Part shown: positions 27,860-40,680 of the stretch, piece by piece
Numbering within the stretch: the first letter of the stretch is position 1
Layout of the letters: each line of letters opens with the position of its first letter
Assembly: GCA_050246755.1 (NCBI GenBank)
Contig: JBFWVL010000001.1
Span: 576,001 to 640,000 of the forward strand
Source: Bacteriovoracia bacterium
GTDB taxonomy: Bacteria > Bdellovibrionota > UBA1018 > CAIPTA01
Reading direction: 5' to 3'
DNA: 64,000 bases
Notes under the pieces: generated by a model
What the model was told of the DNA's origin: nothing
What the model saw: only the letters and a program-made list of their open reading frames with translations
Database searches by the model: none
Position numbers and translations under genes: made by a program

Positions 27860-28792
27860 TTACTTCTGCTCAAACCCGGATTTTTTCGCCAAGATATAAA
27901 TGGGCCGGCCCTTAACCTCATCATAGGCTTTTCCGAGATAGATCCCCAAAAGGCCGCTGCTCAAGAGCTGCAACCCTCCCATGAACAAAATCAGCAGGAT
28001 CACCGAGGTCCAGCCGGGGACGGTTTGGACCGTGAAAAAATGAACATAGAAAATATAGGCGGCGTAAAAGCAGCCGATAAAAGTGACCATCATCCCGGCG
28101 TAGGCGGCGAGATAAAGAGGCTTGGAAGAAAAACTCGTGATTCCTCCGAGCGCCAAAGAAATCATTTTTCGTATCGAGTACTTTGTTTCTCCATGCTCCC
28201 GCTTGGCCGCCACGTAAGGAACTTCGATGGCATTAAATCCCACCCAGCCGGTGAGCCCGCGCAGGAAGCGCACGCGCTCGCGGAGGCCACAGAGCACCTT
28301 CACCACCTCACGGTCGAGTAGCCGGAAATCGGCGGCATTAGCGGTAAGGTTCACGTTGGCGAGCAAAGAAAAAAACTTATAGAAAAGCCCGCTGGTTAGT
28401 TTTTTATGCCAGGAAATTCCTTCGGTGCTTTCCCGCACGGCGATCACGATCTGGTAGCCGGCACGCCACTTCTCGATCAGCTTGGGCACAATCGCGGGGG
28501 GATGCTGAAGGTCCGCGTCCATGGTGATCACGGCCCGGCCGCTGGCGGCCTCGAGCCCTGCCGTAAGCGCGGCCTGGTGCCCGAAATTCCGGGAAAAACA
28601 GAGGAGCCGCACGCGGGGGTCGGACTGAATTAGGCGCTCCACTTCGAGGGCGGAGCGGTCGGTGCTGCCGTCGTCCACGAAAATAAGCTCAAAGGAAGGT
28701 CCGATTTTTTCAAATTCCGCGCAGAGCGCGGCGTAAATCCTGGGAACGTTTTTTTCTTCGTTCATCATCGGAATTACAACTGAGAAATCCAT
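27860..28792 (-). CDS. GT2 polyprenol-phosphate glycosyltransferase (GtrB/YkoT-like)
   Basis: VDDGSTD, SRNFGHQAAL, DADLQHPP, DFRLLDR, two C-terminal TMs, EVKGRPIY. Confidence 0.92.
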   Translation of the reverse strand: MDFSVVIPMMNEEKNVPRIYAALCAEFEKIGPSFELIFVDDGSTDRSALEVERLIQSDPRVRLLCFSRNFGHQAALTAGLEAASGRAVITMDADLQHPPAIVPKLIEKWRAGYQIVIAVRESTEGISWHKKLTSGLFYKFFSLLANVNLTANAADFRLLDREVVKVLCGLRERVRFLRGLTGWVGFNAIEVPYVAAKREHGETKYSIRKMISLALGGITSFSSKPLYLAAYAGMMVTFIGCFYAAYIFYVHFFTVQTVPGWTSVILLILFMGGLQLLSSGLLGIYLGKAYDEVKGRPIYILAKKSGFEQK

Positions 28793-28840
28793 ACTTTTTG
28801 TTATCATGCCGAGAAACACTAAGTAAACGGGAAAGCTCGC

Positions 28841-30184
28841 TTGAATCGCAACTCCTCAATTTATTTCTTCGCGGCCAACCTTCTGAAGAATCACGGAAAA
28901 AAAATGGCCCGCGTCACGTTCCTCGCGGCCCTGCTGGCCGGAGTACTCTTCACACCTAAATATCCTTTATTTAGGGCCGGCATCCGTGTTCCATGGAGCC
29001 TGGGTTACGCGAGTAATATCGCGCGCAAGATCGTTTACCGCGAGCCCACTTCGATGCCGGACTGGCAGTTCGACGATCCGGGCCTCCTGCTCTTCGCCGT
29101 CCCCTTCTACTTAGCTCAGCCCAGCTATCTTTTTTCCAACCCCAACAAAGAGATTCCACGCTCCTTCATTTGGGTAATGTGCGCGATATACGCCGTCATG
29201 ATGGCCCTTCTCTATTGGCTTTGCGCACAATTCCTGGGAGAGTTAGTGACGCTTCTCCTTTGCTCGTTTTTGGCGCTTTCGCCGGTGTATAGGGCGGCGG
29301 CCATGAGCGTGGACGTGCACCTATTCCCGGTATATGCGGGAATCCTTTTCCTACTTTGCGCATTTCTGCTCGGCCGGAGGCCAACTACTCGGAAAAGCAC
29401 GCTGGCTCTCTGCGCCGCCGGTATATTTGCCTGCGACCTATTCCGCAGCTCGGGAATATTCGTAACGGCCGGCTTCCTGCTTCTGCAGGCACGCCCCGAA
29501 TCCCTGCAGGCTTTATTCCCGATTCGCTCCGGGGCCTTAGTAAAAAATGGCGCGCTCCTCTGCCTGGGACTACTGCTGGCGGCCAGCTTATGCTCGAGGG
29601 GAATCGGGCGGGCGGGCCACCCCGTATGGCATGCCCTGCACGCGGGGCTAATGGAGTTCGGCGGCCATATCGACGAACGGCAGCAGATTTACCCATTTTT
29701 TGTTCCGAAGGAGGAAATCCCCGCAACGGCAGCCTGGAATCCTACCTGGAACGATACGTTCGAGATAAACTTTGCGAAACAGAAGGCGCCAAGCGCCGCA
29801 GCCTACTCGCCCGAATATTCGGCCGTGCTGCGCGAGGATTTTTTTCGAATCGTTTTTTCCTATCCGACGGGATTCGCGAAACTGATCAGCTACCGGCTCT
29901 GGAATTTTTTCGATTTGAATTATTGGGGGAGAAAAGAAGGAACAGACTACCATTCACTTCCCGAAAGCTTCTTGTCGTTGCGAGGATTCTCTTCACTGCT
30001 CGTATTTCTACTAGCGGGGTACGGCGCCGTGCTCGCGCCGATCGTAGCGGTAACGCTGCTGCCTCTCGCTCTGCCCCCGCTGCTTGTGTCCACGACCTAC
30101 TTTTACTATCTGCTGCCGGGCCAGTTCGCGCTGCTACTTCTGGCCGCCTGCGCAGTTGCCCGAATACGCCGCCGCTTTATCTAG
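28841..30184 (+). CDS. Polytopic membrane protein, possible GT-C glycosyltransferase
   Basis: Multiple TMs, DDPG in the first loop, large periplasmic loop; divergent from the GtrB-like gene; start uncertain. Confidence 0.5.
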   Translation: MNRNSSIYFFAANLLKNHGKKMARVTFLAALLAGVLFTPKYPLFRAGIRVPWSLGYASNIARKIVYREPTSMPDWQFDDPGLLLFAVPFYLAQPSYLFSNPNKEIPRSFIWVMCAIYAVMMALLYWLCAQFLGELVTLLLCSFLALSPVYRAAAMSVDVHLFPVYAGILFLLCAFLLGRRPTTRKSTLALCAAGIFACDLFRSSGIFVTAGFLLLQARPESLQALFPIRSGALVKNGALLCLGLLLAASLCSRGIGRAGHPVWHALHAGLMEFGGHIDERQQIYPFFVPKEEIPATAAWNPTWNDTFEINFAKQKAPSAAAYSPEYSAVLREDFFRIVFSYPTGFAKLISYRLWNFFDLNYWGRKEGTDYHSLPESFLSLRGFSSLLVFLLAGYGAVLAPIVAVTLLPLALPPLLVSTTYFYYLLPGQFALLLLAACAVARIRRRFI

Positions 30185-30966
30185 CGGGCGCCATTCTCCA
30201 TCACGGCGTGAATCCAACTTAGGTAGTTCACCACGATGATGGAAAAGGTATGATGGCCGCCACCGTCGCAACTCATATTGTCGGCATCGATATAGCTGCT
30301 TACGGCAGCGAGATAATATTGATTGGCGATCTTAATATATGCTGGACCGCCTGAATCACCCACGCAACCCGATTGCTTGCCTTCAACGTCGCCCATTTGC
30401 ACGATGAAATTCTTCTCGTCCCGGGCCTGCACTTGGAGGTTTGCTGAGGTAAGGCCATTATGGAGGCCTACACCAGTTTTACCAAATCCCTGGAGCACTA
30501 CCGTTCCGGCCAACTGGGTTACGTCCTTGAGCATTGGCACGGGCGTAAAAGGTGCGGGAGCCGCGCTTTCTAGGCGTAGGACGGCGATATCATTATTGTC
30601 CTCGAAACGCTGAGGCTCGGGCGTGTAGTTGGGGTGAATTTTCCAGGCGATCACTTTGCGCTTAGCCACTAACTTTTCGCCGTCGAAAAAGGCCACGAAT
30701 TCGGGTGTCACGATCGCGCAATGAGCTGCGGTGAGCACGTAAGTGGGACTGATCAGGGTGCCAGTGCAAGTGCCGCCGCTGAGCTTTACGAATACCGTGG
30801 ATCCCCAGCCCCAGGCATTCTTTGCCACCGGAGTGCCGGAAAATATGCCCGAGAAACTGGGAACGACCGACTTATCGAAGCCACGGCGCAGGCTATTTCC
30901 TTCTTCGGCGCGGGCCACGTTTAGAAAGAAAGCAATCAAAGCCAGGGTAAGAGCGAAACGCTGCAT
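30181..30966 (-). CDS. Secreted trypsin-like (S1) serine protease
   Basis: TAAHC, DIAV, GDSGGP triad motifs; signal peptide. Confidence 0.95.
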   Translation of the reverse strand: MQRFALTLALIAFFLNVARAEEGNSLRRGFDKSVVPSFSGIFSGTPVAKNAWGWGSTVFVKLSGGTCTGTLISPTYVLTAAHCAIVTPEFVAFFDGEKLVAKRKVIAWKIHPNYTPEPQRFEDNNDIAVLRLESAAPAPFTPVPMLKDVTQLAGTVVLQGFGKTGVGLHNGLTSANLQVQARDEKNFIVQMGDVEGKQSGCVGDSGGPAYIKIANQYYLAAVSSYIDADNMSCDGGGHHTFSIIVVNYLSWIHAVMENGAR

Positions 30967-31109: not shown

Positions 31110-31874
31110 GTGAGATGGATAAAATACCTAGTTTTATTAAACACTTTTATCGCTCCCGCCTGGCCGGCAGAAGGCGATGATCTTTTCTGCCAAGAGCTGA
31201 AAATAGGCGCTTCGCGGCCCATCCAACTCGCAGACCGAAACCAAACCACGGGCCTCACGCATTGGCAGCGCGTGGAGCGTACGGGAATCTATTCTTATCG
31301 CCTCCATTTCCAGCTGCGATTCCTCCCTTTTCGTTCGGAAGAAAAAATCGATCCGGGATTCCGGGAACGGATGGCCTCCTGCCTGGAAGAATTCAATCCT
31401 AAGCTCCAAGCCAAAGACGAAGAGGGCCGCGTTTGGAAAGTAGAGCTGGTGATTGATCCGGCGGAATCCGAAGCGCTCACCATTTTCGTCGGCGGTAAGG
31501 GCACGAATCCTAAAGCGCGCTGGCGCACCAAAGATTTCCTCCGCCCATCTTATTTGCTCTATCCTTCCGACATCAGCTGCCAAAGCGTCGTGCACGAGAT
31601 GCTTCATCTTGGCGGCCTCGTGGATGAGTACAGCGAGGGCAAGGAATTTCCCTGCCGCGCGGCCGGCCCCCTCAGCTCAGTGATGAGCAACGAGTACCTC
31701 GCCCTCGGCGAAACCACGAAATTCGCTTTGCAGCCGGCGCACGTGCGCGCCCTGGCTTACCCCGGCTGCCAGGAAAAAAACGCCAAGTACTACCACTGCG
31801 CGCAACGGTCCTACCTCACCGGGGGCTGCCATGCCCTGCCCGAGTGCGCCGTTGATTCCGGCTGGTTGCGCTAG
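31110..31874 (+). CDS. Secreted zinc metalloprotease (metzincin-like)
   Basis: HEMLHLGGLVDEY (HExxHxxGxxD) and Met-turn SSVMS; signal peptide. Confidence 0.8.
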   Translation: MRWIKYLVLLNTFIAPAWPAEGDDLFCQELKIGASRPIQLADRNQTTGLTHWQRVERTGIYSYRLHFQLRFLPFRSEEKIDPGFRERMASCLEEFNPKLQAKDEEGRVWKVELVIDPAESEALTIFVGGKGTNPKARWRTKDFLRPSYLLYPSDISCQSVVHEMLHLGGLVDEYSEGKEFPCRAAGPLSSVMSNEYLALGETTKFALQPAHVRALAYPGCQEKNAKYYHCAQRSYLTGGCHALPECAVDSGWLR

Positions 31875-31942: not shown

Positions 31943-32380
31943 ATGAAGGCAATCGTTCTGGCGCTATTTCTACCCATCACCGCCCTCGCGACCTTCGATG
32001 GCCGTTATAGCGGCCCCGGCACCTCGCTCATGCACCAAAGCGGAAATCGCCGCGACTGCCGCGAAATCTTCCTCAAGCTCCAGGGCGGAGAAAAAGCACT
32101 GCGGATCCTCGAGGGCGGCTATATCTGCGGAGATATCCAGGCCAGCTTCGATCCCTTCACGCTGGAAATCCGCGAGGGAAAAATCTTCCTCGAAGGCCAG
32201 AGCGTGGGCACGATTTCCGAAAACGATCTGGACCTTCTCTATAAAAGCGAAGAAGAAAACTTTACCTACCATTGGCACCTGCAGCAGGCCGGCGACGAAA
32301 TCAACTACCTGGAAGAATGGGCTTCGGGTGGCGCCCCCAGCCTCACCGTGCAGGGTAAGCTGAAAAAAATATCCCCATGA
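31943..32380 (+). CDS. Secreted beta-rich hypothetical protein
   Basis: Signal peptide, two Cys, GGGAG RBS. Confidence 0.7.
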   Translation: MKAIVLALFLPITALATFDGRYSGPGTSLMHQSGNRRDCREIFLKLQGGEKALRILEGGYICGDIQASFDPFTLEIREGKIFLEGQSVGTISENDLDLLYKSEEENFTYHWHLQQAGDEINYLEEWASGGAPSLTVQGKLKKISP

Positions 32381-32565
32381 AGTTCGTTCGCCTCCTCATC
32401 GCATTTTGCACCTGCGTTCCCGCCCTCGCGATGCCCTACCGCCTTCGCCTAACGTACATGCATACGCTCGCCTACCTAGTGCATGCGCCCTACCGCTTAT
32501 TCGGAATCCTGGCCCGCAGCTTTTTGGCCCAGCTCGAAGAAAAAAATCCCTATGAACGCCCCTAG
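32377..32565 (+). CDS. Small hydrophobic hypothetical protein (62 aa)
   Basis: ATGA overlap with the upstream gene; its stop overlaps the next start; amphipathic. Confidence 0.55.
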   Translation: MKFVRLLIAFCTCVPALAMPYRLRLTYMHTLAYLVHAPYRLFGILARSFLAQLEEKNPYERP

Positions 32566-33373
32566 CGCAAAGTGCGCCGTCCTTTTTTCCGGGGGCACGG
32601 ATTCCACCTGCGTGGCGGCGCTCCTGGCGGCTAGCCACTCCGAGATTCACCTCCTCACCTTCTTTGAAGAAGGCACCAAAAATAGCCCCATCCCGAAAAA
32701 TAATATCCTGCTCCTCGAAAAAAAATTTCCCGCGGTGAAATTCGTCCACCGCGTGCTCAGCACGGACTCGCTGGTAAAAAAAATTAGCTACGAAGGCTAC
32801 TTAAAAAACCTCTGGCGCCATGGTTTCTTCCTGCTCGCCACGCCCGGATTTTCCACGCTGAGCTGGCACTCCACCATGATTGCGTATTGCCGCCGGGAAG
32901 GTATCAGCGCGGTGGCCGACGGACTCACCCGCGAGCTGATGCATTTTCCTGGTCACATGGACGCCATCATTGGCTTGTTCAGGAAGTTTTACGCCGGCTT
33001 CGGGATCGAATACAAAAATCCGGTGCGGGAATGGGACATCCCCCCCGACCAGCAATTCCTGGATCGCCTCATCGTGGATCACCACGCTTTCTTCAGCGAC
33101 GCCTCCCTCCCCGAAAAGAAAGACGCCAAAACCACCGGCGCCTATTTGTTTTCCCTCGGGCTCACGCCCGCTCCCGACGTGAAAGGCACCGACTACGACC
33201 GGCGCATGCAGCACGATTGCTATCCCTTCGTGCTCTATAATATTTTTGCGTTCTGGATGTATCTCCCTTTTCGCCCCTACGCCCAATTTGAAAACCGCCT
33301 CGCGTCGCTGTTTCGCGAAAAAATAGCTCGCTGCGAAGCCTGGCTCCAAGACGGAAGTATTTCCTGCGAATGA
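32552..33373 (+). CDS. PP-loop (adenine nucleotide alpha-hydrolase) protein of unknown function
   Basis: CAVLFSGGTDST PP-loop; lacks the QueC Cys cluster; ATG 32552. Confidence 0.75.
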   Translation: MNAPSAKCAVLFSGGTDSTCVAALLAASHSEIHLLTFFEEGTKNSPIPKNNILLLEKKFPAVKFVHRVLSTDSLVKKISYEGYLKNLWRHGFFLLATPGFSTLSWHSTMIAYCRREGISAVADGLTRELMHFPGHMDAIIGLFRKFYAGFGIEYKNPVREWDIPPDQQFLDRLIVDHHAFFSDASLPEKKDAKTTGAYLFSLGLTPAPDVKGTDYDRRMQHDCYPFVLYNIFAFWMYLPFRPYAQFENRLASLFREKIARCEAWLQDGSISCE

Positions 33374-34458
33374 AATTTCTTTTGGTAAATATTTTTCTTT
33401 TCCTTTCCCTGGCTGGCGCGGGCGAGCTCGGCTCCCGCCTCTGGACGAAAAATTTCGGCAATCCCGTGGACAAAACCCTCGCGATCCTCCGGCCTGACCC
33501 CTCGCTGGGCTGGCGCGGGCGCCCGCACTTGAAGGAATTTTTTTTTGGCGGCGGCCTGGAAACCGATGGCGAAGGCTTCCGCATCCCGAATGAGTCGTCC
33601 TCCGCCCAAAAACAGCTCTGGACCTTCGGCCCTTCCTCCGCGTTTGGCTGGGGCGTAGAAAACGAAGGTACCTACACCCAGCGCGCCGCCAAAGGCCTCG
33701 GGTGGACGGCACGCAACCTCAGCCAAATCGGGTACTCGTCGGCACAAGGATTAAGCCTCGTGGCGCAATACCCTCCGCCCGAAAACTCCTCGGTGCTATT
33801 TTCCTACGGGATTAACGACCTAGATCGTTTTCGTTTCTTTTTTCCCTCGTTCCAAAGCGACGCGGAATTTTTTGCCCACCCTCTGTCCCCCGGCGAAATA
33901 TTCGTGGCTAATTTAGGCTCGCATTTTCACTTCCTGCGTTACCTCCTCCGCGGCGCGGGAAATATACGGGCAATGGTTCGCTGCCCCCTCCCCCCCACGC
34001 TTCCGCTCCGGGTGCCCATTCCCTCAACCATCGAAAATCTGGAAAAGTTTTCCGCGTCTCTCTCGGCTATCCACGCCACGCTCGTCGTAATCGATACCCC
34101 CTACCTTCCCGCTCGCATTCAGGATGGCCTGGCCAGCTCGGAGAAAATCTACCGCGCGGCCTACGAGGCTTCCGTGGCGGGCGCTTGTGGAAAATCCCAC
34201 GCGCTATTGGAAAAATTTCTGGCCTTAGAACCCACGCGCATCCACCAAGACGTAAATCTTCTCAATGCGGCCCTCGCGCAGTGGGCGGCGCGTAGCGGCA
34301 CCCTGATCGTAAAGGCTTCCCATTTACTTTCCGAACCCGCTGATTTTGTGGATCCAATCCACCCCTCCGCCCTCGGGCACGAAAAAATCGCGGCGGCCAT
34401 TACGCAGCTGCTGCAAAGTAGGAAATCCGCGAAAAATGTGGGAAAGTGGAAACCATGA
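33370..34458 (+). CDS. Membrane-anchored SGNH/GDSL hydrolase
   Basis: FGPSSAFGWG, GYSS, YGINDL, DPIHPSALGH. Confidence 0.88.
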   Translation: MKFLLVNIFLFLSLAGAGELGSRLWTKNFGNPVDKTLAILRPDPSLGWRGRPHLKEFFFGGGLETDGEGFRIPNESSSAQKQLWTFGPSSAFGWGVENEGTYTQRAAKGLGWTARNLSQIGYSSAQGLSLVAQYPPPENSSVLFSYGINDLDRFRFFFPSFQSDAEFFAHPLSPGEIFVANLGSHFHFLRYLLRGAGNIRAMVRCPLPPTLPLRVPIPSTIENLEKFSASLSAIHATLVVIDTPYLPARIQDGLASSEKIYRAAYEASVAGACGKSHALLEKFLALEPTRIHQDVNLLNAALAQWAARSGTLIVKASHLLSEPADFVDPIHPSALGHEKIAAAITQLLQSRKSAKNVGKWKP

Positions 34459-34646
34459 GCCCCGAAGAGAAAAAAACGGAAGCCCCGCGAACGATCGGTG
34501 ATTTTTTAAAATTTACTTTTTGGAAAATGATCGAGAAAAAGAAGCTCTATCTTTTTCCCATGTGGATTCTTCTCGCGGCCATTGCCTTACTGCTCGTTCT
34601 CTCCGGAAACTCTCACCTGCTCCCCGCGATCTATATCGCATTCTAA
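34455..34646 (+). CDS. DUF5989 (SxtK-like) small membrane protein
   Basis: KKLYLFPMWILL...LLPAIYIAF pattern; ATGA overlap with the SGNH gene. Confidence 0.75.
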   Translation: MSPEEKKTEAPRTIGDFLKFTFWKMIEKKKLYLFPMWILLAAIALLLVLSGNSHLLPAIYIAF

Positions 34647-35044
34647 GCCGCTACCCGCTCCCTCGATTCCGCCTCCAAGCAGGCCACAACCTGCGCAAGC
34701 AGTTCCCTGCACACGAACGGCTTGGGCAAAACTCCGTTTAAGCTCGGGTTATCCAGCGCGGCCCGTTGGGCCTCGGAACAGCCGGTCATGAGGATAAAGG
34801 GTAGAGAATATTCTTTCCGCAACCAGCGTAGAAAGTCGAATCCGCTCATGTCGGGCATATTGGCGTCGCAAAGCACCATATCTATTTCGCCGGATCGCAC
34901 CAGCGCCTGGGCATGCGTAGCGTTCTCCGCGAGTACCGGCGCGTACTGATTGCGCAACAGAATGAGCTCAATTACCGCCCTTAATTCCGGCTCGTCGTCG
35001 ATCACCAGGATTCTCTTTTTCGCGCCGGCCACTGAGTGCTTCAT
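34643..35044 (-). CDS. Single-domain response regulator
   Basis: IDDE, CDANMP, MTG, PKPF. Confidence 0.9.
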   Translation of the reverse strand: MKHSVAGAKKRILVIDDEPELRAVIELILLRNQYAPVLAENATHAQALVRSGEIDMVLCDANMPDMSGFDFLRWLRKEYSLPFILMTGCSEAQRAALDNPSLNGVLPKPFVCRELLAQVVACLEAESRERVAA

Positions 35045-35745: not shown

Positions 35746-38700
35746 CTATTGGCGCTCAAGGTACTTGATGTGCATGTGACGAATGCGCATGAAGAGAGAG
35801 GTATCGGGATCGGCGAGAAAGCTCACGGACCCCTGAAGAACGCCCGTGAAGCCGATGTATTCTGGAGCAGGCTGTGTGTCCACCAGTGCGGTGGCAAAGT
35901 AACCAGCCATACCGCCGGCGAGGCCATAAGCCGATCCCTGCGCCGCGTGCTCCTTCTCAAACTGCGCCAGCTGCTGACGGAGCTTCTCGCGGAGACTCAT
36001 TTTAGCAATGGCGCCTTTAGAGGCCGTAGGCTTCGCGGTCGCAAGAGTGGCAGGCCCATTGGCTTTGCCTAGCGTGCCTGCCTTCGAAGCACCACTACTA
36101 GATAATAATTGTTTTTCAGAAACGGAACCAGCGCCCGTTTCGCCCGCTTTCATCGAGGCCAATTTCATCCCACCAGTATCGGCGGCGGAATTTCCCGGAG
36201 CGCCGGAAATGTCCGATTCTGGCTTGGAAGCGATACCTTCCTTTCCCGCTACGTTAAGCTCGGGCGCCGTACCCCCAAAACCGAAACTTCCGCCGCCCCC
36301 TTTGGCGGCCGGCCCACCAGATATGCCGCTTGGAATGCTTCCTGGCGCACTGCCATTACCCGCAGGGCCTTCATTACCACTGAGTACGCTGGAGGGCGCC
36401 CGGGAGGGCGTAAGGCTCGAGACAGGCGAAGAAGTTGGCGGCCCCGGGAAGCTGGGCGGAATGCTCGCCAGGGCAGAAGAATCCGGGCGTACTATGCTTC
36501 CGGCAAGGGGGTCGCTCTTGATCGCCGGAGATGCCGCGACAAATTCACTCAATGGACTAGGTAAAGCTGCCGCCACCACGTCCCGGACACGAATAATACT
36601 ACTTGGAATCACTTCGTTGACCACTTTACCGACTCCCTTTATGGCCGCATTTATGCCATTGGAAGTGGTGCCAATGGCTCGCTGTATGAGAGACGGGGGC
36701 GCCTTTATTGGAGTACGCGTAATTGCTGCCTGGGCCCGTACGTTCGAGCTTCCGGCCGCCTCTAGCCGAGCTACGCTCGATTTACCTTCCTGTTTTAATC
36801 CTCGGCTATATTCTTTTTTTGCAAATTTCGCCGAGGCCGTTTCGGCTCTCTTCATGGCACTTTCAAAAATGCTCTCAGGGTTTGCCTTCACCAGAGATTT
36901 GCTAATCTTTTCCGAAATCGCGTTCGCTTCGCCTACGTCGCGAGCGATCGCCCCTCTCATTGATTCAATTTTCGCCATTACCTCGGTTCGTAAACCCTCC
37001 CTAGCGCCTAAACCGGTATCTGCCAGCATGGAAAGATCTTTTTCCGACCGAGAAACCACGATGGAAGCTTCGCCTATCTTGTTATTGTAGGCGTCCTTTG
37101 CGTCGAAGACCGCTTGTAGCTCCCCGTTCTCTCCCCTTCTCAGAGCGTAGGCTAATTCGCGTTCTTCCATTAGCCTATCTTGTATCGCGGCTAAGTGGGA
37201 TTCGGCCGCTGCGCTATGATCGCGATACTGCTTGAGCGCATCGAAATCTTTGGTGAGATTACCGTGCGGGCCGACGGAGTCGGGGCTAATACCATAAAAT
37301 TCTAATTTAGATTTTAATGCACTGGGAACCGGCGCGCCCGTTTTGCGCAATACCGCGAAATCGCGGGCCGCGGACAGGCCATCTTTGGCATTCATGCGGT
37401 AGGTTGGCAATTCCTGTAAGCTACTAAAATTTCGGTAGCCTTCCGGGCCAACTGGTAAAGCAGATGCTTCGGATTTAAAGTATCCGTCGTACGGCGAGCT
37501 TTTCCCCTTTTCAGCATTACTAACGGAACGGCCGTGAATTGCCTCGTGTAAAATAACCGGGTCGGCGCCGCGTTTAGAAAAATCGACGGACGCGCTTCGT
37601 ACGCTTACCACTTTATCAAAAGTATCTTCGAATCCGTGAGTGCCATAAACGATATTACGAACCGGATCAAAATCCACGGAATAACCCGGGGTTTGCTTTA
37701 AAAAAGTATCGTGCTGGGCAAATCCCGAAGGACGAGAGCTCCTGCTCGGCTGGGCTTTCATGGAGTACACATACCGCTCGGGCACGGAAGCTTTGCCGTA
37801 GGCATTGATGGCGTCTAGTTTAATAACCTCGCCGCCTTCCCTGCCCGTGATCTTTGCGATTTTTTCTATTTCCTTGGCGTGCTGGCGAGAATAATTTAGA
37901 ACGTCCCTCTTCACCTCTTTTGAGAGCGGAACATTGGAATTTACCGCCTCTTTCATTATTGCTTCGAGCTTAACCTCTTTGGAGGAGATGCTTTCTCTAA
38001 GGCTTTCTATCTGCGTTCTTTCGGCAGGAGAAAATTTAGCCAGGGCTGGCTCTTCACTGTACCCTTTCAGCACTTTCTGTTTTTGTGCTTCCAATTCAGC
38101 AGGATTCTCCCAGTAGGGCTCCGCTTTAATCGGAAGCTCGTCGTGATTGCGAAGCATGGCGCTTTCCACAGAATCTTCACCCGAGGTTTTTAGAGAAGCG
38201 ACGGGCTCGGAGACATGGGGAGGTTGATGGCCATTTTGCGCGGGAATTTCTTCATGCCTGCGTACGGCGAGCGACTCCGCGGAATCGTCCGCTGAGCTTT
38301 TGAAGGCATTGATTTCTGGGCTAGTGGCTCGCTCCGCAGAAATGGTCGATTTTTCCGCTAGTGACTCCGACACGCGGGGAGCAGAAACTTCCGGGATATA
38401 GTGGGCGGATGACTCGGGAAAAACCCGGGATACCGAAACTACCTCATCCGCATACCGCGCGGATAGCTTCTCCATCGAATTCGACAAACTCTCCTTCGCG
38501 AAGCCTCTCATTCCAATTTTTTCCAAAGCGCCTCCGGTGAAAGTTCCCGCCACTCCACCGGTTAAACCCGTGGCCATCAGGTTCACGGCCACCATTTTTG
38601 TATCTTTGCTCGCCTTAGCGGCGGTGTCATTTTTGGCTGTTTCAGCTATCGCGCTCTCTGGAAGCAAGCCACTCTGAATCGCAGTTCTATCGGCGGCCTT

Positions 38701-40680
38701 GTACGATTCGCCCGCTCTGACCATTGCTCCTCCGGGAGCCCACTCAAGCGTATCCAATACTTCGTTTCTCTCTTCCACTCCCCTAAACGCCGCGCCCAAC
38801 TCATCTTTGGTCTTCTGATCCGTAGTGGTGCCATTCAAAATTCCGGCGGCCACGCTATTGTCGGTAATAAGCCTCTGGCTTTCTACCCGGATAGCCTGTT
38901 CTCCTCCGGCGATTGGGTTAATCCCTCGTTCGGTGGTTTTTTGGTCCATGATGGTTTCATGCTCGCGTAAAGCCGCCATCCCTTCCGCCCGCCCTTGCTG
39001 CTCGACCGCGTCTTTCTCTAACCTCTCGATGTGGAGGTCTCTTCGCTTCGCGATTAAATCCGCTGCTTCAGAGCTATTTGCTTGGGCGAGCGCTTCATCG
39101 CTGCCGTCTTTCAATGAGTAACGCTCGCCGCGAAGAGCAGAGGCAATTGAAGCGTTGCGCTTATGTTCAAAATCTTCCGTGGATATTGTTCTTTTTTCGC
39201 CAAAATCCATCACGGCTTTACAAACGGCAGCGTTATCACAGGCCGCCTCTACGCTGGCGTTGCGTTCTTTGAGGGCCTCACTAAATATTTTTTCCTTTTC
39301 GGTCAGCGGACCGCTCTCATCCAGCTTCTTTAAGGTGCCGGTAGTTACGTCCTGGGCAAGCCCTTTTGAAAGCTCTTCAAGATTCTTCGATTTATCCTTT
39401 AAGTCTTGGGTAACCTCTTGAACTCTTTTTGCTACGCCCTCCGTACCGCCTAATTTTTCTTCATCTTCTTTCAGTTTAGCTACGGAGATTTGAGAAAGCT
39501 TATCGTTCACGTCGATAACTTGCTTTTCGGTATGTGCATCCGAATTGATATCTAACTCGCCCACTTTATCCGCGTGTAAAGCCCCCTCCTTTGCTAACTT
39601 ACTTTCCACCGTATCGGATTGGTATACATCATCAAAGATGTCTTCGGTAAGCTTGGCGGCACCGGAGCTTTTTTTCACCTGTGAAAGATCATCTCGCTTT
39701 TCTTCCTCAGAAATAGGTGGCGGCGCTTTGGCCTCGGAAACGGCGGCCGCCTTCAACTCGGAAAGCGCTTTATCTTCCCGCTTCGCAATATTCTCCGGCA
39801 CCGGATCCGAATGCGTGAGGCCGGTGAGTTTTTCCCATAGAGACTTTTTATCGGCTTCTACTTTCGGCGCCTTCTCACTAACAATCTTGGCGACTTCTTG
39901 ATTAGCTTCCTCGCTGCCGCTATCGAGCTTAATCGCCGCAAGTTTGGATTTTTTGGACTCCATGTCGGCTTTCTTCGCAAGATTTTCTTTCTCCGCCTGC
40001 CGCATCAGCTTTTCCATCGCCCGGCCCGAAGTGATTGCCTTGCCCTGCTCTTCTATAGCGCGGGGGTAGAGCTCGTCTTTTAGAACTTTATCGATGGGCT
40101 CCTTCTCTTTTTCGATTTTAGCAATCTGCCCCTGAGCCTCCTCGGCTCTCTTCTTGATTTGAGGATCGGAGTCGCTTTCCGAGCGCCTCACCAGATTTTT
40201 CATCCGCTGGAGGTATACCCGGCGCTCACGCTCGGCCTCGGTAACTTCGGAGAGGCGCTTCTTCATCGTGCCGATCGCTTTTTCGTTCTTCGCGTATTTT
40301 TCTTTCAGCGTGTCGGCGGATTTTTTTGCCACGCCGGCAGCCTTTTCATATTCTTTCGCGGCCGAATCGCAGACTTCCATCACCGACGCAATCATGGATT
40401 TAGTGTCGTTGCCGCTCTTTACGGCTTTCGAAGCCACTTCCGCTTCCTTCTCGCCGGCCTTCTTCATCAGCTTGGAATACTCTTCGTGCGCTACCTTAAT
40501 TCCCTCGCCGAGCTCCTTACAGGGCTGTTTCGAATCGGTGATTTTGTCGGTCCATTGCGAAGCGGGCACTTCGTGACGTGTGCAGGAAATCTTTACGCGT
40601 CCGATTTTAACGTCGGATTCCGCGGCGTGCGCCGGCAGCCAGAACAAGGCTGCGAAAATTATGAGTGCCGAATGAAACAT
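35746..40680 (-). CDS. Giant secreted protein (1644 aa) with coiled coil, HExxH motif and Gly/Ser-rich tail
   Basis: Uninterrupted ORF; signal peptide; K/E-rich coiled-coil N-terminus; HEAIH at 37534-37548. Confidence 0.85.
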   Translation of the reverse strand: MFHSALIIFAALFWLPAHAAESDVKIGRVKISCTRHEVPASQWTDKITDSKQPCKELGEGIKVAHEEYSKLMKKAGEKEAEVASKAVKSGNDTKSMIASVMEVCDSAAKEYEKAAGVAKKSADTLKEKYAKNEKAIGTMKKRLSEVTEAERERRVYLQRMKNLVRRSESDSDPQIKKRAEEAQGQIAKIEKEKEPIDKVLKDELYPRAIEEQGKAITSGRAMEKLMRQAEKENLAKKADMESKKSKLAAIKLDSGSEEANQEVAKIVSEKAPKVEADKKSLWEKLTGLTHSDPVPENIAKREDKALSELKAAAVSEAKAPPPISEEEKRDDLSQVKKSSGAAKLTEDIFDDVYQSDTVESKLAKEGALHADKVGELDINSDAHTEKQVIDVNDKLSQISVAKLKEDEEKLGGTEGVAKRVQEVTQDLKDKSKNLEELSKGLAQDVTTGTLKKLDESGPLTEKEKIFSEALKERNASVEAACDNAAVCKAVMDFGEKRTISTEDFEHKRNASIASALRGERYSLKDGSDEALAQANSSEAADLIAKRRDLHIERLEKDAVEQQGRAEGMAALREHETIMDQKTTERGINPIAGGEQAIRVESQRLITDNSVAAGILNGTTTDQKTKDELGAAFRGVEERNEVLDTLEWAPGGAMVRAGESYKAADRTAIQSGLLPESAIAETAKNDTAAKASKDTKMVAVNLMATGLTGGVAGTFTGGALEKIGMRGFAKESLSNSMEKLSARYADEVVSVSRVFPESSAHYIPEVSAPRVSESLAEKSTISAERATSPEINAFKSSADDSAESLAVRRHEEIPAQNGHQPPHVSEPVASLKTSGEDSVESAMLRNHDELPIKAEPYWENPAELEAQKQKVLKGYSEEPALAKFSPAERTQIESLRESISSKEVKLEAIMKEAVNSNVPLSKEVKRDVLNYSRQHAKEIEKIAKITGREGGEVIKLDAINAYGKASVPERYVYSMKAQPSRSSRPSGFAQHDTFLKQTPGYSVDFDPVRNIVYGTHGFEDTFDKVVSVRSASVDFSKRGADPVILHEAIHGRSVSNAEKGKSSPYDGYFKSEASALPVGPEGYRNFSSLQELPTYRMNAKDGLSAARDFAVLRKTGAPVPSALKSKLEFYGISPDSVGPHGNLTKDFDALKQYRDHSAAAESHLAAIQDRLMEERELAYALRRGENGELQAVFDAKDAYNNKIGEASIVVSRSEKDLSMLADTGLGAREGLRTEVMAKIESMRGAIARDVGEANAISEKISKSLVKANPESIFESAMKRAETASAKFAKKEYSRGLKQEGKSSVARLEAAGSSNVRAQAAITRTPIKAPPSLIQRAIGTTSNGINAAIKGVGKVVNEVIPSSIIRVRDVVAAALPSPLSEFVAASPAIKSDPLAGSIVRPDSSALASIPPSFPGPPTSSPVSSLTPSRAPSSVLSGNEGPAGNGSAPGSIPSGISGGPAAKGGGGSFGFGGTAPELNVAGKEGIASKPESDISGAPGNSAADTGGMKLASMKAGETGAGSVSEKQLLSSSGASKAGTLGKANGPATLATAKPTASKGAIAKMSLREKLRQQLAQFEKEHAAQGSAYGLAGGMAGYFATALVDTQPAPEYIGFTGVLQGSVSFLADPDTSLFMRIRHMHIKYLERQ

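Follow-up and report, generated by a model that had tools for sequence, protein, structure and literature searches.

A recurrent four-gene module of a PP-loop enzyme, two membrane microproteins and an SGNH-fold enzyme as a putative tyrosine-shuttle system of the cell envelope

In the genome of a Bacteriovoracia bacterium (GenBank assembly GCA_050246755.1), a 64,000-nucleotide stretch of contig JBFWVL010000001.1, which we call the window (C1:576001-640000 in our numbering of the 10 contigs of this 3.5 Mb genome), carries at positions 31943-34646 of the plus strand five open reading frames (ORFs) chained by their overlapping ends. We report that four of these genes, coding for a small membrane protein (ORF2), a PP-loop ATP pyrophosphatase, an SGNH-fold serine enzyme and a divergent DUF5989 microprotein, stand together in other bacteria as well, an arrangement that is far beyond chance, and we rate the module as a putative envelope-modification system of the tyrosine-shuttle/SGNH type with an unprecedented loading half. 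Namely, acyl-tyrosine shuttles explain the acylation of bacterial envelope polymers and, as far as the published account goes, every known case needs an acyltransferase of the MBOAT or AT3 family (PMC12148441). The module has the shuttle motif and an SGNH partner, with an ATP-dependent PP-loop enzyme and its microprotein anchor in the place of the membrane enzyme. If this is true, it would mean a new loading mechanism for envelope modification, and it would provide a testable function for DUF5989, a family of at least 7,959 sequence clusters, as well as a hypothesis for the function of sxtJ and sxtK of the saxitoxin gene clusters.

Results

Layout of the cassette

The five frames, from 5' to 3', are the following.
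31943..32380, plus strand: ORF1, 145 amino acids; the N-terminus is hydrophobic and the protein is probably exported; neither Pfam nor NCBIfam assigns it to a family.
32377..32565, plus strand: ORF2, a 62-amino-acid membrane microprotein; no Pfam match.
32552..33373, plus strand: PP-loop ATP pyrophosphatase, 273 amino acids if counted from the ATG at 32552; SGGTDS occupies residues 13-18.
33370..34458, plus strand: SGNH-fold serine enzyme, 362 amino acids, with a Lipase_GDSL_2 match and an N-terminal membrane helix.
34455..34646, plus strand: divergent DUF5989 microprotein, 63 amino acids counted from the ATG at 34455, with a PF19451 match.

All overlaps that an earlier note on this DNA had described are present and can be read directly in the sequence. 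Namely, stop and start share an ATGA at 32377 (the stop of ORF1 and the start of ORF2), at 33370 and at 34455, and ORF2 and the PP-loop gene share 14 bases (32552-32565). The same note had stated that the cassette is devoid of a carbamoyltransferase, and indeed neither a carbamoyltransferase nor an SxtJ gene was found in the window by a Pfam scan and a PF02543 search of the genome, the PF02543 matches of the genome lying at C5:92140, C1:1060856 and C1:1105142-1106047. The G+C content is 0.55-0.58 in the cassette and 0.52-0.58 around it, and base composition gives no signal of horizontal transfer when the cassette is compared with its surroundings. Scans for promoters and terminators returned site counts no higher than in shuffled sequence.

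A run of seven A stands at 32540-32546, just ahead of the ORF2 stop and the PP-loop start, and a one-base slip there would join the two frames, as they are joined in 29 of 120 homologues. That the split is a sequencing error at this run is unlikely, most relatives being split likewise, and a contig from another sample (possibly of the same source study) crosses the junction without an indel or any other difference.

Recurrence of the four genes

Relatives of the PP-loop protein are encoded at 43 loci in a scan of one genome per species, in Elusimicrobiota, Bdellovibrionales, Omnitrophota, Patescibacteria, Planctomycetia, Burkholderiales, Rickettsiales and others. When the stop-to-stop ORFs of these loci were searched with the window proteins (phmmer, E<=1e-3), ORF2 was found in 29 of them, the SGNH enzyme in 27 and a DUF5989-like protein in 31, while carbamoyltransferase and SxtJ were found in only 2. 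Many of the 43 loci lie on short contigs; among the 26 whose PP-loop gene is flanked by 3 kb or more on either side the respective counts are 19, 18 and 21, with all three partners in 14, and these are lower bounds, a single query sequence having been used. In other words, the association of the PP-loop gene with SGNH and DUF5989 genes, which the earlier note had pointed out in this cassette, exists elsewhere and across phyla. ORF1, on the other hand, is found by the same search in none of the 43 loci, and the conserved unit therefore consists of four genes, not five; ORF1, the first frame of the cassette as originally described, is not part of the module. The PP-loop protein is absent from all 40 relatives of the host that were searched, including 5 of the same genus.

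The order of genes takes two forms. Closer relatives have ORF2, PP-loop, SGNH and DUF5989 genes, in some cases preceded by a second, divergent SGNH gene, and more distant ones have one to three SGNH copies, DUF5989, a B12-binding radical SAM gene, ORF2 and the PP-loop gene. At several of the closer loci the flanks are unrelated housekeeping genes (ileS-lspA-lgt at locus L019; tsf-pyrH-frr-cdsA through to a site-2 protease gene at L020), and the module is therefore self-contained. The reciprocal approach, a scan of metagenome contigs with the tail pattern described below, gave 10 loci. An SGNH gene lies directly upstream of the DUF5989-like gene in all eight of those that have upstream DNA (at one of the eight, L100, it codes for a partial protein below the Pfam cut-off), and two of the three with at least 2.2 kb upstream also carry ORF2 and the PP-loop gene, L095 being the exception.

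The detectable set is not always complete. At L028, L030, L039 and L041 a DUF5989-like gene is present and SGNH was not detected. Two Bdellovibrionaceae loci (L049, 6921-10009, and L050) have ORF2 and the PP-loop gene followed by genes for two proteins of 490 and about 545 amino acids, with no Pfam family, which sit in place of the SGNH and DUF5989 genes.

The C-terminal tyrosine motif of DUF5989

The window DUF5989 protein matches PF19451 with 33.8 bits over residues 22-61 (cut-off 27; 33.2 bits in the genome search) and consists of a basic amphipathic N-terminus, one transmembrane helix and the C-terminus L-P-A-I-Y-I-A-F. This is the canonical architecture of the family (about 50 amino acids, a basic amphipathic N-terminus, one helix and a Tyr tail), with Ala replacing Phe in P-A-I-Y-I-A-F. 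P35, P57 and Y60 are invariant in an alignment of 21 DUF5989-like sequences, and by analogy with the proteins discussed below Tyr60 is a candidate carrier residue. Adjacent to PP-loop genes there are 31 DUF5989-like ORFs, 30 of them intact and one, at L017, disrupted ahead of the tail; P-x-[ILV]-Y is present in all 30 intact tails and the ending Y-x-x-F in 26. The consensus of DUF5989 tails reads P-[AF]-[ILV]-Y-x-x-F. Canonical DUF5989 proteins make up at least 7,959 sequence clusters (7,959 of 8,000 scored candidates at E<=1e-3, with an alignment as the query; a single canonical query returned only 2 proteins), and 119 of the best 120 end in P-F-[IV]-Y-T-[LI]-F at the extreme C-terminus, thus meeting the published motif FXYXXF in full.

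This motif has a precedent. In DltX, D-alanine is carried on the invariant Tyr of a C-terminal FXYXXF 'acyl shuttle' motif and passed to the SGNH-type protein DltD; bacterial MBOATs have the same motif at their own C-terminus, following a peripheral helix and the last transmembrane helix, and PatA of N. gonorrhoeae ends FIYANF (PMC12148441). The two MBOATs of the host genome have the tails KFIYFKF and RFVYFQF, and all 28 MBOAT ORFs (27 genes) from the host genome and its relatives end [FL]-x-Y-x-x-F. The earlier note had likened the DUF5989 tail to those of DltX and PatA, a comparison that holds for the invariant Tyr, the tail matching the published motif apart from the Ala at its first position in this subfamily. 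The motif is specific: of the 49,545 stop-to-stop ORFs of at least 40 amino acids that the genome contains, 53 have the ending Y-x-x-F and 11 the ending [FA]-x-Y-x-x-F, and the four of these 11 that follow a hydrophobic helix, as judged by eye, are the two MBOATs and the two DUF5989 proteins. What is more, the 31 DUF5989-like sequences have on average 4.1 Lys or Arg residues before the helix versus 0.13 after it, which places the N-terminus inside and the tail outside; the N-in/C-out topology is therefore our prediction by charge count. As far as sequences go, an architecture and a motif in common among DUF5989, DltX and MBOAT tails are established, while membership of DUF5989 in the DltX family is not.

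The SGNH enzyme and its predicted contact with the tail

The third member of the module matches Lipase_GDSL_2 in Pfam with 35.7 bits (cut-off 32.9). Its signature residues S89, G121, N149, D328 and H331 are intact, and they are invariant in 20 sequences, as are the family-specific residues W94, D152, R155 and F156, with the motif N-D-x-D-R-F-R-F. The AlphaFold2 (AF2) model, with a predicted local distance difference test score (pLDDT) of 91.5, has an SGNH core and, in addition, a long N-terminal helix (2-29), a small beta unit and an insert made of helices. The best and widest fold match is CgnD (PDB 8a2n; Foldseek E 5.7e-9; VIA-align Z 20.2 over 245 residues at a root-mean-square deviation, rmsd, of 4.7), followed in VIA-align Z by generic GDSL esterases (19.3-17), OatA (15.8), PatB (15.3) and Ape1 (14.1). 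Since PatB, OatA and Ape1 do not rank above generic esterases, the fold is silent on whether the enzyme is a transferase or a hydrolase. DltD is not among the matches listed in either fold search, which is no evidence against a likeness.

The complex of the SGNH and DUF5989-like proteins was predicted with each partner supplied as an alignment and with three controls. The pair scored 0.68 versus 0.01 for the best control; the score mark is one reached by 116 of 157 solved complexes and by 2 of 215 mismatched pairs, counts that are approximate here since our own alignments were used. The runs share at least 98% of their contacts, with a partner pLDDT of at least 71, and in them DUF5989 residues 49-63 are predicted to touch SGNH residues 121, 148-149, 151-156, 159-161, 192-201 and 328-330. 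Three of the five signature residues (G121, N149 and D328) are among these predicted contacts, as is the D-R-F-R-F stretch with its family-specific residues D152, R155 and F156; S89 and H331 are not named. Complex modelling, which the earlier note had suggested, thus places the tail at the SGNH active site when run on this pair, and the model supports, but does not show, binding of the DUF5989 tail over the catalytic cleft. A comparable arrangement has been described for DltD and DltX, with an AlphaFold3 interface predicted template modelling score (ipTM) of 0.80 together with peptide binding (PMC13653941).

Many loci have beside the module a second, divergent SGNH paralogue of about 400-455 amino acids that the window does not have (L014, 3739-4974, minus; L017, 4473-5699, minus; L020, 4409-5773, minus; L045, 460-1659, plus; and others). 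As aligned, this paralogue lacks the Ser of G-x-S, and several of its copies are also without the block V His; it may be a non-catalytic partner.

The PP-loop enzyme as a remote relative of YcfA

The PP-loop superfamily motif and fold are both present, SGGTDS (residues 13-18) being invariant in 22 sequences. Cys20 and Cys223 of the enzyme are invariant too. Pfam gives matches below cut-off, at the SGGTDS end alone, to DUF7411 (22.8 bits), QueC (19.7) and Asn_synthase (18). The protein has many relatives: 200 homologues at E<=1e-3 were found in a collection clustered at 90%, the best at 66% identity, and clustering at 50% identity gives 291 representatives, E<=1e-30 being reached by 34. For the AF2 model (pLDDT 91.7), both Foldseek and VIA-align rank first YcfA of the 6-thioguanine pathway (PDB 9kq6), with a VIA-align Z of 24.2 (215 of 222 residues, rmsd 2.7) as compared with 16.4 for ThiI, 12.6 for QueC and 12.3 for LarE; ArgG is also among the fold matches. 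At the level of sequence, the family profile finds YcfA at E 2.7e-15 versus 0.0078 for QueC. By this profile match the protein is a remote YcfA homologue of an unnamed family.

Could it be an ordinary QueC or tRNA-modifying enzyme that happens to lie beside unrelated envelope genes? We give this next to no credence, although Pfam and NCBIfam match it weakly to QueC at the PP-loop motif and ThiI ranks second among the folds, because the QueC matches stay below cut-off (19.7 versus 22 bits for PF06508 and 20.2 versus 150.3 for TIGR00364) and cover residues 8-38 only, because a full-length QueC is encoded elsewhere in the genome (C1:1827179, 159 bits), and because 29 of 120 homologues have a membrane microprotein joined to them in one chain and the gene is linked to SGNH and DUF5989 genes across phyla; besides, Pfam finds no THUMP or other RNA-binding domain in it. 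The earlier note had allowed that the gene might prove a bona fide QueC; its nearest relative is YcfA instead.

YcfA acts on the C6 carbonyl of GTP, which it first adenylates and to which it then adds the L-cysteine thiol (PMC12494993). A hidden Markov model (HMM) alignment has the PP-loop Asp and Phe132 of YcfA retained in our family, and at the substrate and Cys-binding residues Y128, Q129, E134 and Q135 the window protein has E, L, G and H; the adenylation chemistry is therefore probably common to the two enzymes, the substrate not. The T-P-G-F-S of the window subfamily is T-C-G-x-C in more distant family members, a hint, along with the conserved Cys223, at an iron-sulfur (Fe-S) or persulfide site lost in the window branch.

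ORF2, a membrane partner of the enzyme

ORF2 has one hydrophobic helix, an L-P-Y-R-x-R turn and then an amphipathic helix; in the alignment P20, the Pro of the turn, is invariant, and C13, which lies within the helix, and R24 are nearly so. At 29 of the 43 loci the gene is the immediate upstream neighbour of the PP-loop gene. In long forms of the PP-loop protein (330-393 amino acids) the N-terminal segment aligns with ORF2, and a profile built from 21 ORF2 sequences finds this segment fused in 29 of the best 120 PP-loop homologues, that is, in all 29 homologues of at least 330 amino acids and in none of the shorter ones. It follows from such fusions that ORF2 is a real product that physically contacts the enzyme, and to judge by them it serves the PP-loop enzyme as its membrane anchor or partner. 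Pfam finds nothing meaningful in 21 members of the ORF2 family. The earlier note had placed this 62-amino-acid frame in the position of SxtJ; it is indeed a conserved partner, often fused to the enzyme, but a short SxtJ it is not, as the two have no detectable likeness (hhalign probability 2%). The module defines two unnamed families, that of ORF2 and that of the membrane-tethered, YcfA-like PP-loop enzyme.

Discussion

A proposed relay without a membrane acyltransferase

Taken together, the most likely function of the module is to transfer a small group out of the cytoplasm onto a component of the envelope without an MBOAT or AT3 acyltransferase. As for how, we tentatively favor, at somewhat less than an even chance, an MBOAT-independent relay that runs from an adenylating enzyme to a Tyr microprotein and from there to an SGNH transferase. 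In the first step, which is modelled on homology, a YcfA-like PP-loop enzyme held by ORF2 at the inner face of the membrane would adenylate its substrate, at the expense of ATP, on the oxygen of a carboxyl or carbonyl group, and a nucleophile would then displace AMP, as in YcfA; the thiol of ORF2 Cys13, or that of Cys20 or Cys223 of the enzyme, is a candidate for this nucleophile and would yield a thioester. In the second step, the group would arrive on Tyr60 of the exoplasmic P-A-I-Y-x-x-F tail, so that the DUF5989 tail would be a free-standing counterpart of the 'acyl shuttle' motif of DltX and MBOATs. In the third, the tail would swing into the cleft of the membrane-anchored SGNH enzyme, where Ser89 would accept the group and hand it to an envelope acceptor. 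This last step is supported, as a model, by the motif, the gene linkage and the controlled complex prediction. Direct computational support thus goes no further than the class of the enzyme, the motif, the orientation of the microprotein in the membrane and its docking as predicted; we infer the loading step, the group and its acceptor.

It should be noted that a number of observations weigh against such a relay. Concerning the tail, the first motif position in this subfamily is Ala and not the Phe of FXYXXF, and among the 30 intact relatives two end in Y-x-x-L and two carry one extra residue. DUF5989 and MBOAT tails align in register in hhalign (P 5.5e-4 and 9.2e-5), with a probability of only 30-59%; a search for a link to DltX with 9 DUF5989 proteins gave no Pfam family other than DUF5989 at E<=10, and a comparison of DUF5989 with PDB chains gave no match. 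Concerning the enzymes, the replacement of the YcfA substrate residues counts on the same side, as does the fact that the closest relatives, YcfA and ThiI, form C-S bonds on nucleotides and do not produce acyl donors. The widest structural match of the SGNH enzyme is a peptidase of the crocagin precursor, its topology is not settled by the count of Lys and Arg (1.5 vs 2.35), and the score of its complex with DUF5989 is a model confidence that may partly reflect likeness to complexes of the DltD-DltX type. Concerning gene content, L095 has SGNH and DUF5989-like genes and no PP-loop gene within 5 kb, and five loci have a PP-loop gene without a detectable DUF5989, namely L019, which has SGNH without a recognisable DUF5989, and L034, L036, L037 and L049, which are without both.

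Finally, there is the membrane itself. Pfam scans of 25 + 129 neighbour proteins, which were picked from crude ORF calls with four very long ORFs and most ORFs below 90 amino acids left out, found no MBOAT or AT3 family; the two MBOAT genes of the genome are far from the cassette (C3:105430 and C1:1574333), each with a tail motif of its own. Nor was a known carrier of groups across the membrane found near the module, where ORF2, a very small protein, is the only other membrane component. The missing conduit is where the relay is weakest, and it is also what makes it most interesting.

Alternative explanations

The same gap speaks for the alternative that survives best, which we nevertheless regard as unlikely, namely that the module carries out two steps on one envelope molecule and that there is no relay at all. 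The PP-loop enzyme would amidate or thiolate a carboxyl or carbonyl of a lipid-linked or membrane substrate inside the cell and, after flipping, SGNH and DUF5989 would act on it outside, with SGNH as an esterase or as a transacylase drawing an acyl group from an outer-leaflet lipid; the Tyr may then shuttle an acyl group, but one not loaded by the PP-loop enzyme. No conduit was found in the neighbour scans, and the tightest pair is that of SGNH and DUF5989, which are adjacent in 8 of 8 loci, form the predicted complex and stand without a PP-loop gene in L095. PP-loop enzymes typically swap an adenylated oxygen for nitrogen or sulfur. This usual replacement fits amidation or thiolation, with YcfA as an example (PMC12494993). 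Moreover, genes for GT2, GT-C (PMT_2), DegT and Asn_synthase proteins occur at some loci, and GT2 and GT39-like genes lie 2-4 kb upstream in the window. That said, at several loci the module sits amid housekeeping genes with no sugar genes nearby, and DUF5989 is common to this module and to carbamoyltransferase operons, mostly without an adjacent SGNH gene in the latter; the microprotein is therefore tied to a cytoplasmic adenylate-forming enzyme, and not to SGNH.

One can also argue that the microproteins are mere membrane tethers or regulators with no covalent role, the Tyr motif being a docking peptide for SGNH, which we consider quite improbable. The fusion of ORF2 to the enzyme as an N-terminal anchor is what one would expect of a tether, the predicted interface of SGNH and DUF5989 indicates binding and not chemistry, and the tail of DltX likewise binds DltD and DltE as a ligand (PMC13653941). 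A docking peptide would not, however, account readily for an invariant Tyr and a motif that lies at the exact C-terminal end in more than 100 sequences and that is identical in form to the one acylated in DltX and PatA (PMC12148441).

We are about as doubtful of a maturation akin to that of ribosomally made, post-translationally modified peptides (RiPPs). DUF5989 would here be a precursor with its tail modified by the PP-loop enzyme (by the carbamoyltransferase in the sister system, and by a radical SAM enzyme at some loci) and cut off outside by a CgnD-like SGNH peptidase. CgnD, the best and widest structural match of our SGNH enzyme, releases the core scaffold of the crocagin precursor peptide, and the crocagin pathway likewise includes a carbamoyltransferase (PMC10070186). 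Genes for B12-binding and SPASM radical SAM enzymes and U32 peptidases lie beside the module at more distant loci, and the tail is always at a free C-terminus. Against this, the tail is the MBOAT/DltX motif and is exoplasmic by charge, whereas the PP-loop enzyme needs cytoplasmic ATP; the putative core is nearly invariant across phyla, and as a leader there would be a transmembrane helix; CgnD outscores generic esterases by no more than one Z unit; and the minimal module is without a radical SAM enzyme, an exporter or any other RiPP gene.

Relation to known systems

Among known systems, the Dlt pathway (DltA/DltC, the MBOAT DltB, DltX and the SGNH-like DltD) offers a close parallel to the relay in its parts: an adenylating enzyme in the cytoplasm, a microprotein of about 50-60 amino acids that crosses the membrane once and has a Tyr motif at its exoplasmic C-terminus, and an SGNH partner, anchored in the membrane, whose cleft is predicted to accept the tail. 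The module differs, however, in having no MBOAT among the neighbours scanned and no carrier protein, in an adenylating enzyme of the PP-loop (YcfA-like) and not the ANL type, in the motif A-I-Y-x-x-F as opposed to F-x-Y-x-x-F with no sequence match to the DltX family, and in a host that is a diderm with LpxC. PatA/PatB and other pairs of an MBOAT and an SGNH protein also have the Tyr motif after a peripheral and a transmembrane helix and a hand-over to SGNH, and the second SGNH paralogue at many module loci recalls the presence of both PatB and Ape1 in that system (PMC12148441). Here, however, the peripheral helix, the transmembrane helix and the motif form a free-standing protein, as if the body of the MBOAT were missing.

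YcfA resembles the PP-loop enzyme in fold over nearly the whole chain and in detectable sequence homology. The two are only 20% identical, however, and the window enzyme has a membrane anchor, its family has an extra C-terminal region with an invariant K-G-x-x-x-D-x-x-M-Q-H-D-C-Y-P-F block, and the neighbour scan found no YcfC-like pyridoxal phosphate (PLP) lyase constantly beside the PP-loop gene. CgnD, for its part, acts like the proposed SGNH enzyme on the C-terminal end of a small peptide, but it was purified as a soluble protein acting on a soluble precursor (PMC10070186), whereas the window SGNH has an N-terminal membrane helix and a transmembrane partner; the two share 16% identity at an rmsd of 4.7.

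The carbamoyltransferase-SxtJ-DUF5989 operons have a DUF5989 of the same architecture and tail and a small membrane protein, and the saxitoxin sxtI-J-K clusters have in addition, as sxtL, a GDSL-type gene. In the module, by contrast, the PP-loop enzyme replaces the carbamoyltransferase, ORF2 replaces SxtJ without a detectable likeness to it, and SGNH is almost constant. The host has such a canonical operon on another contig (C5; L003, 6406-8781, minus), coding for an SxtJ-like protein of 136 amino acids, a DUF5989 of 49 and a carbamoyltransferase of 590, and the window cassette is therefore a second, divergent DUF5989 system; the canonical copy scores 76-78 bits and ends SPFIYTLF, in comparison with 33.8 bits for the window copy. 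Carbamoyltransferase and SxtJ are the usual DUF5989 partners among the relatives of the host, and no SGNH gene was detected near their canonical operons within 1.5 kb on each side. Consequently, the earlier expectation that DUF5989 normally accompanies a carbamoyltransferase, SxtJ and a GDSL protein is right for the first two in these relatives, the third not having been detected at that distance.

The carbamoyltransferase family works through an adenylate. The canonical operon would be a sister system that carries a carbamoyl group, and in a wider reading DUF5989/SxtK would represent a third route, independent of both MBOAT and AT3, leading from an enzyme (carbamoyltransferase or PP-loop) to SxtJ or ORF2 (perhaps at Cys13), to an exoplasmic Tyr, to SGNH and to an acceptor. 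We consider this generalization rather doubtful. If it is true, sxtJ, sxtK and many thousands of carbamoyltransferase-SxtJ-DUF5989 operons encode a carbamoyl shuttle, and GDSL genes such as sxtL code for carbamoyl transferases and not for decarbamoylases. The saxitoxin cluster paper of 2009 lists sxtJ and sxtK as 'Unknown' and proposes a decarbamoylase for sxtL (PMC2679770). A search of the open-access literature found no paper that names DUF5989 and none that links DUF5989/SxtK with DltX, and it found FXYXXF and 'DltX-like' only in the PatAB paper (PMC12148441) and its preprint.

Genomic surroundings and further observations

LpxC is present in the genome, and the host is therefore a diderm that makes lipopolysaccharide (LPS); neither LpxC nor the nearby glycosyltransferase genes identify the acceptor. 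Across the loci, the recurrent neighbours of the module are genes for B12-binding and SPASM radical SAM, GT2, PMT_2, Asn_synthase, DegT and U32 peptidase proteins and methyltransferases.

At three loci a canonical carbamoyltransferase/DUF5989 set adjoins a set of the PP-loop type (L039 and L041, 2300-8260; L098, 1-1936), which suggests that both systems may act on one target. The SxtJ proteins of the genome and its relatives have a conserved C-terminal Q-F in 8 of 12 aligned, a second unexplained end motif. Each of the two MBOAT genes of the host is adjoined by a gene for a protein of about 355-360 amino acids (L063, 2441-3520, on C3; L064, 341-1408, on C1), presumably an exoplasmic partner.

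Within the window, a divergent pair of genes lies 2-4 kb upstream of the cassette. One codes for a GT2 glycosyltransferase (27860-28819, minus; 115 bits in Pfam) and the other for a polytopic membrane protein of 447 amino acids (28841-30184, plus) that has no Pfam match and whose nearest Atlas clusters are those of glycosyltransferase family 39 / ArnT; the pair may be a polyprenyl-phosphate-sugar system. Between this pair and the cassette are genes for a secreted trypsin-like protease (30181-30966, minus) and for a 254-amino-acid protein of no family with an HEMLH (HExxH-type) motif (31110-31874, plus). Downstream, a convergent gene for a stand-alone response-regulator receiver of 133 amino acids (34643-35044, minus) has a stop that overlaps the DUF5989 stop by 4 bases, and a 1644-amino-acid low-complexity protein is encoded at 35746-40680 on the minus strand.

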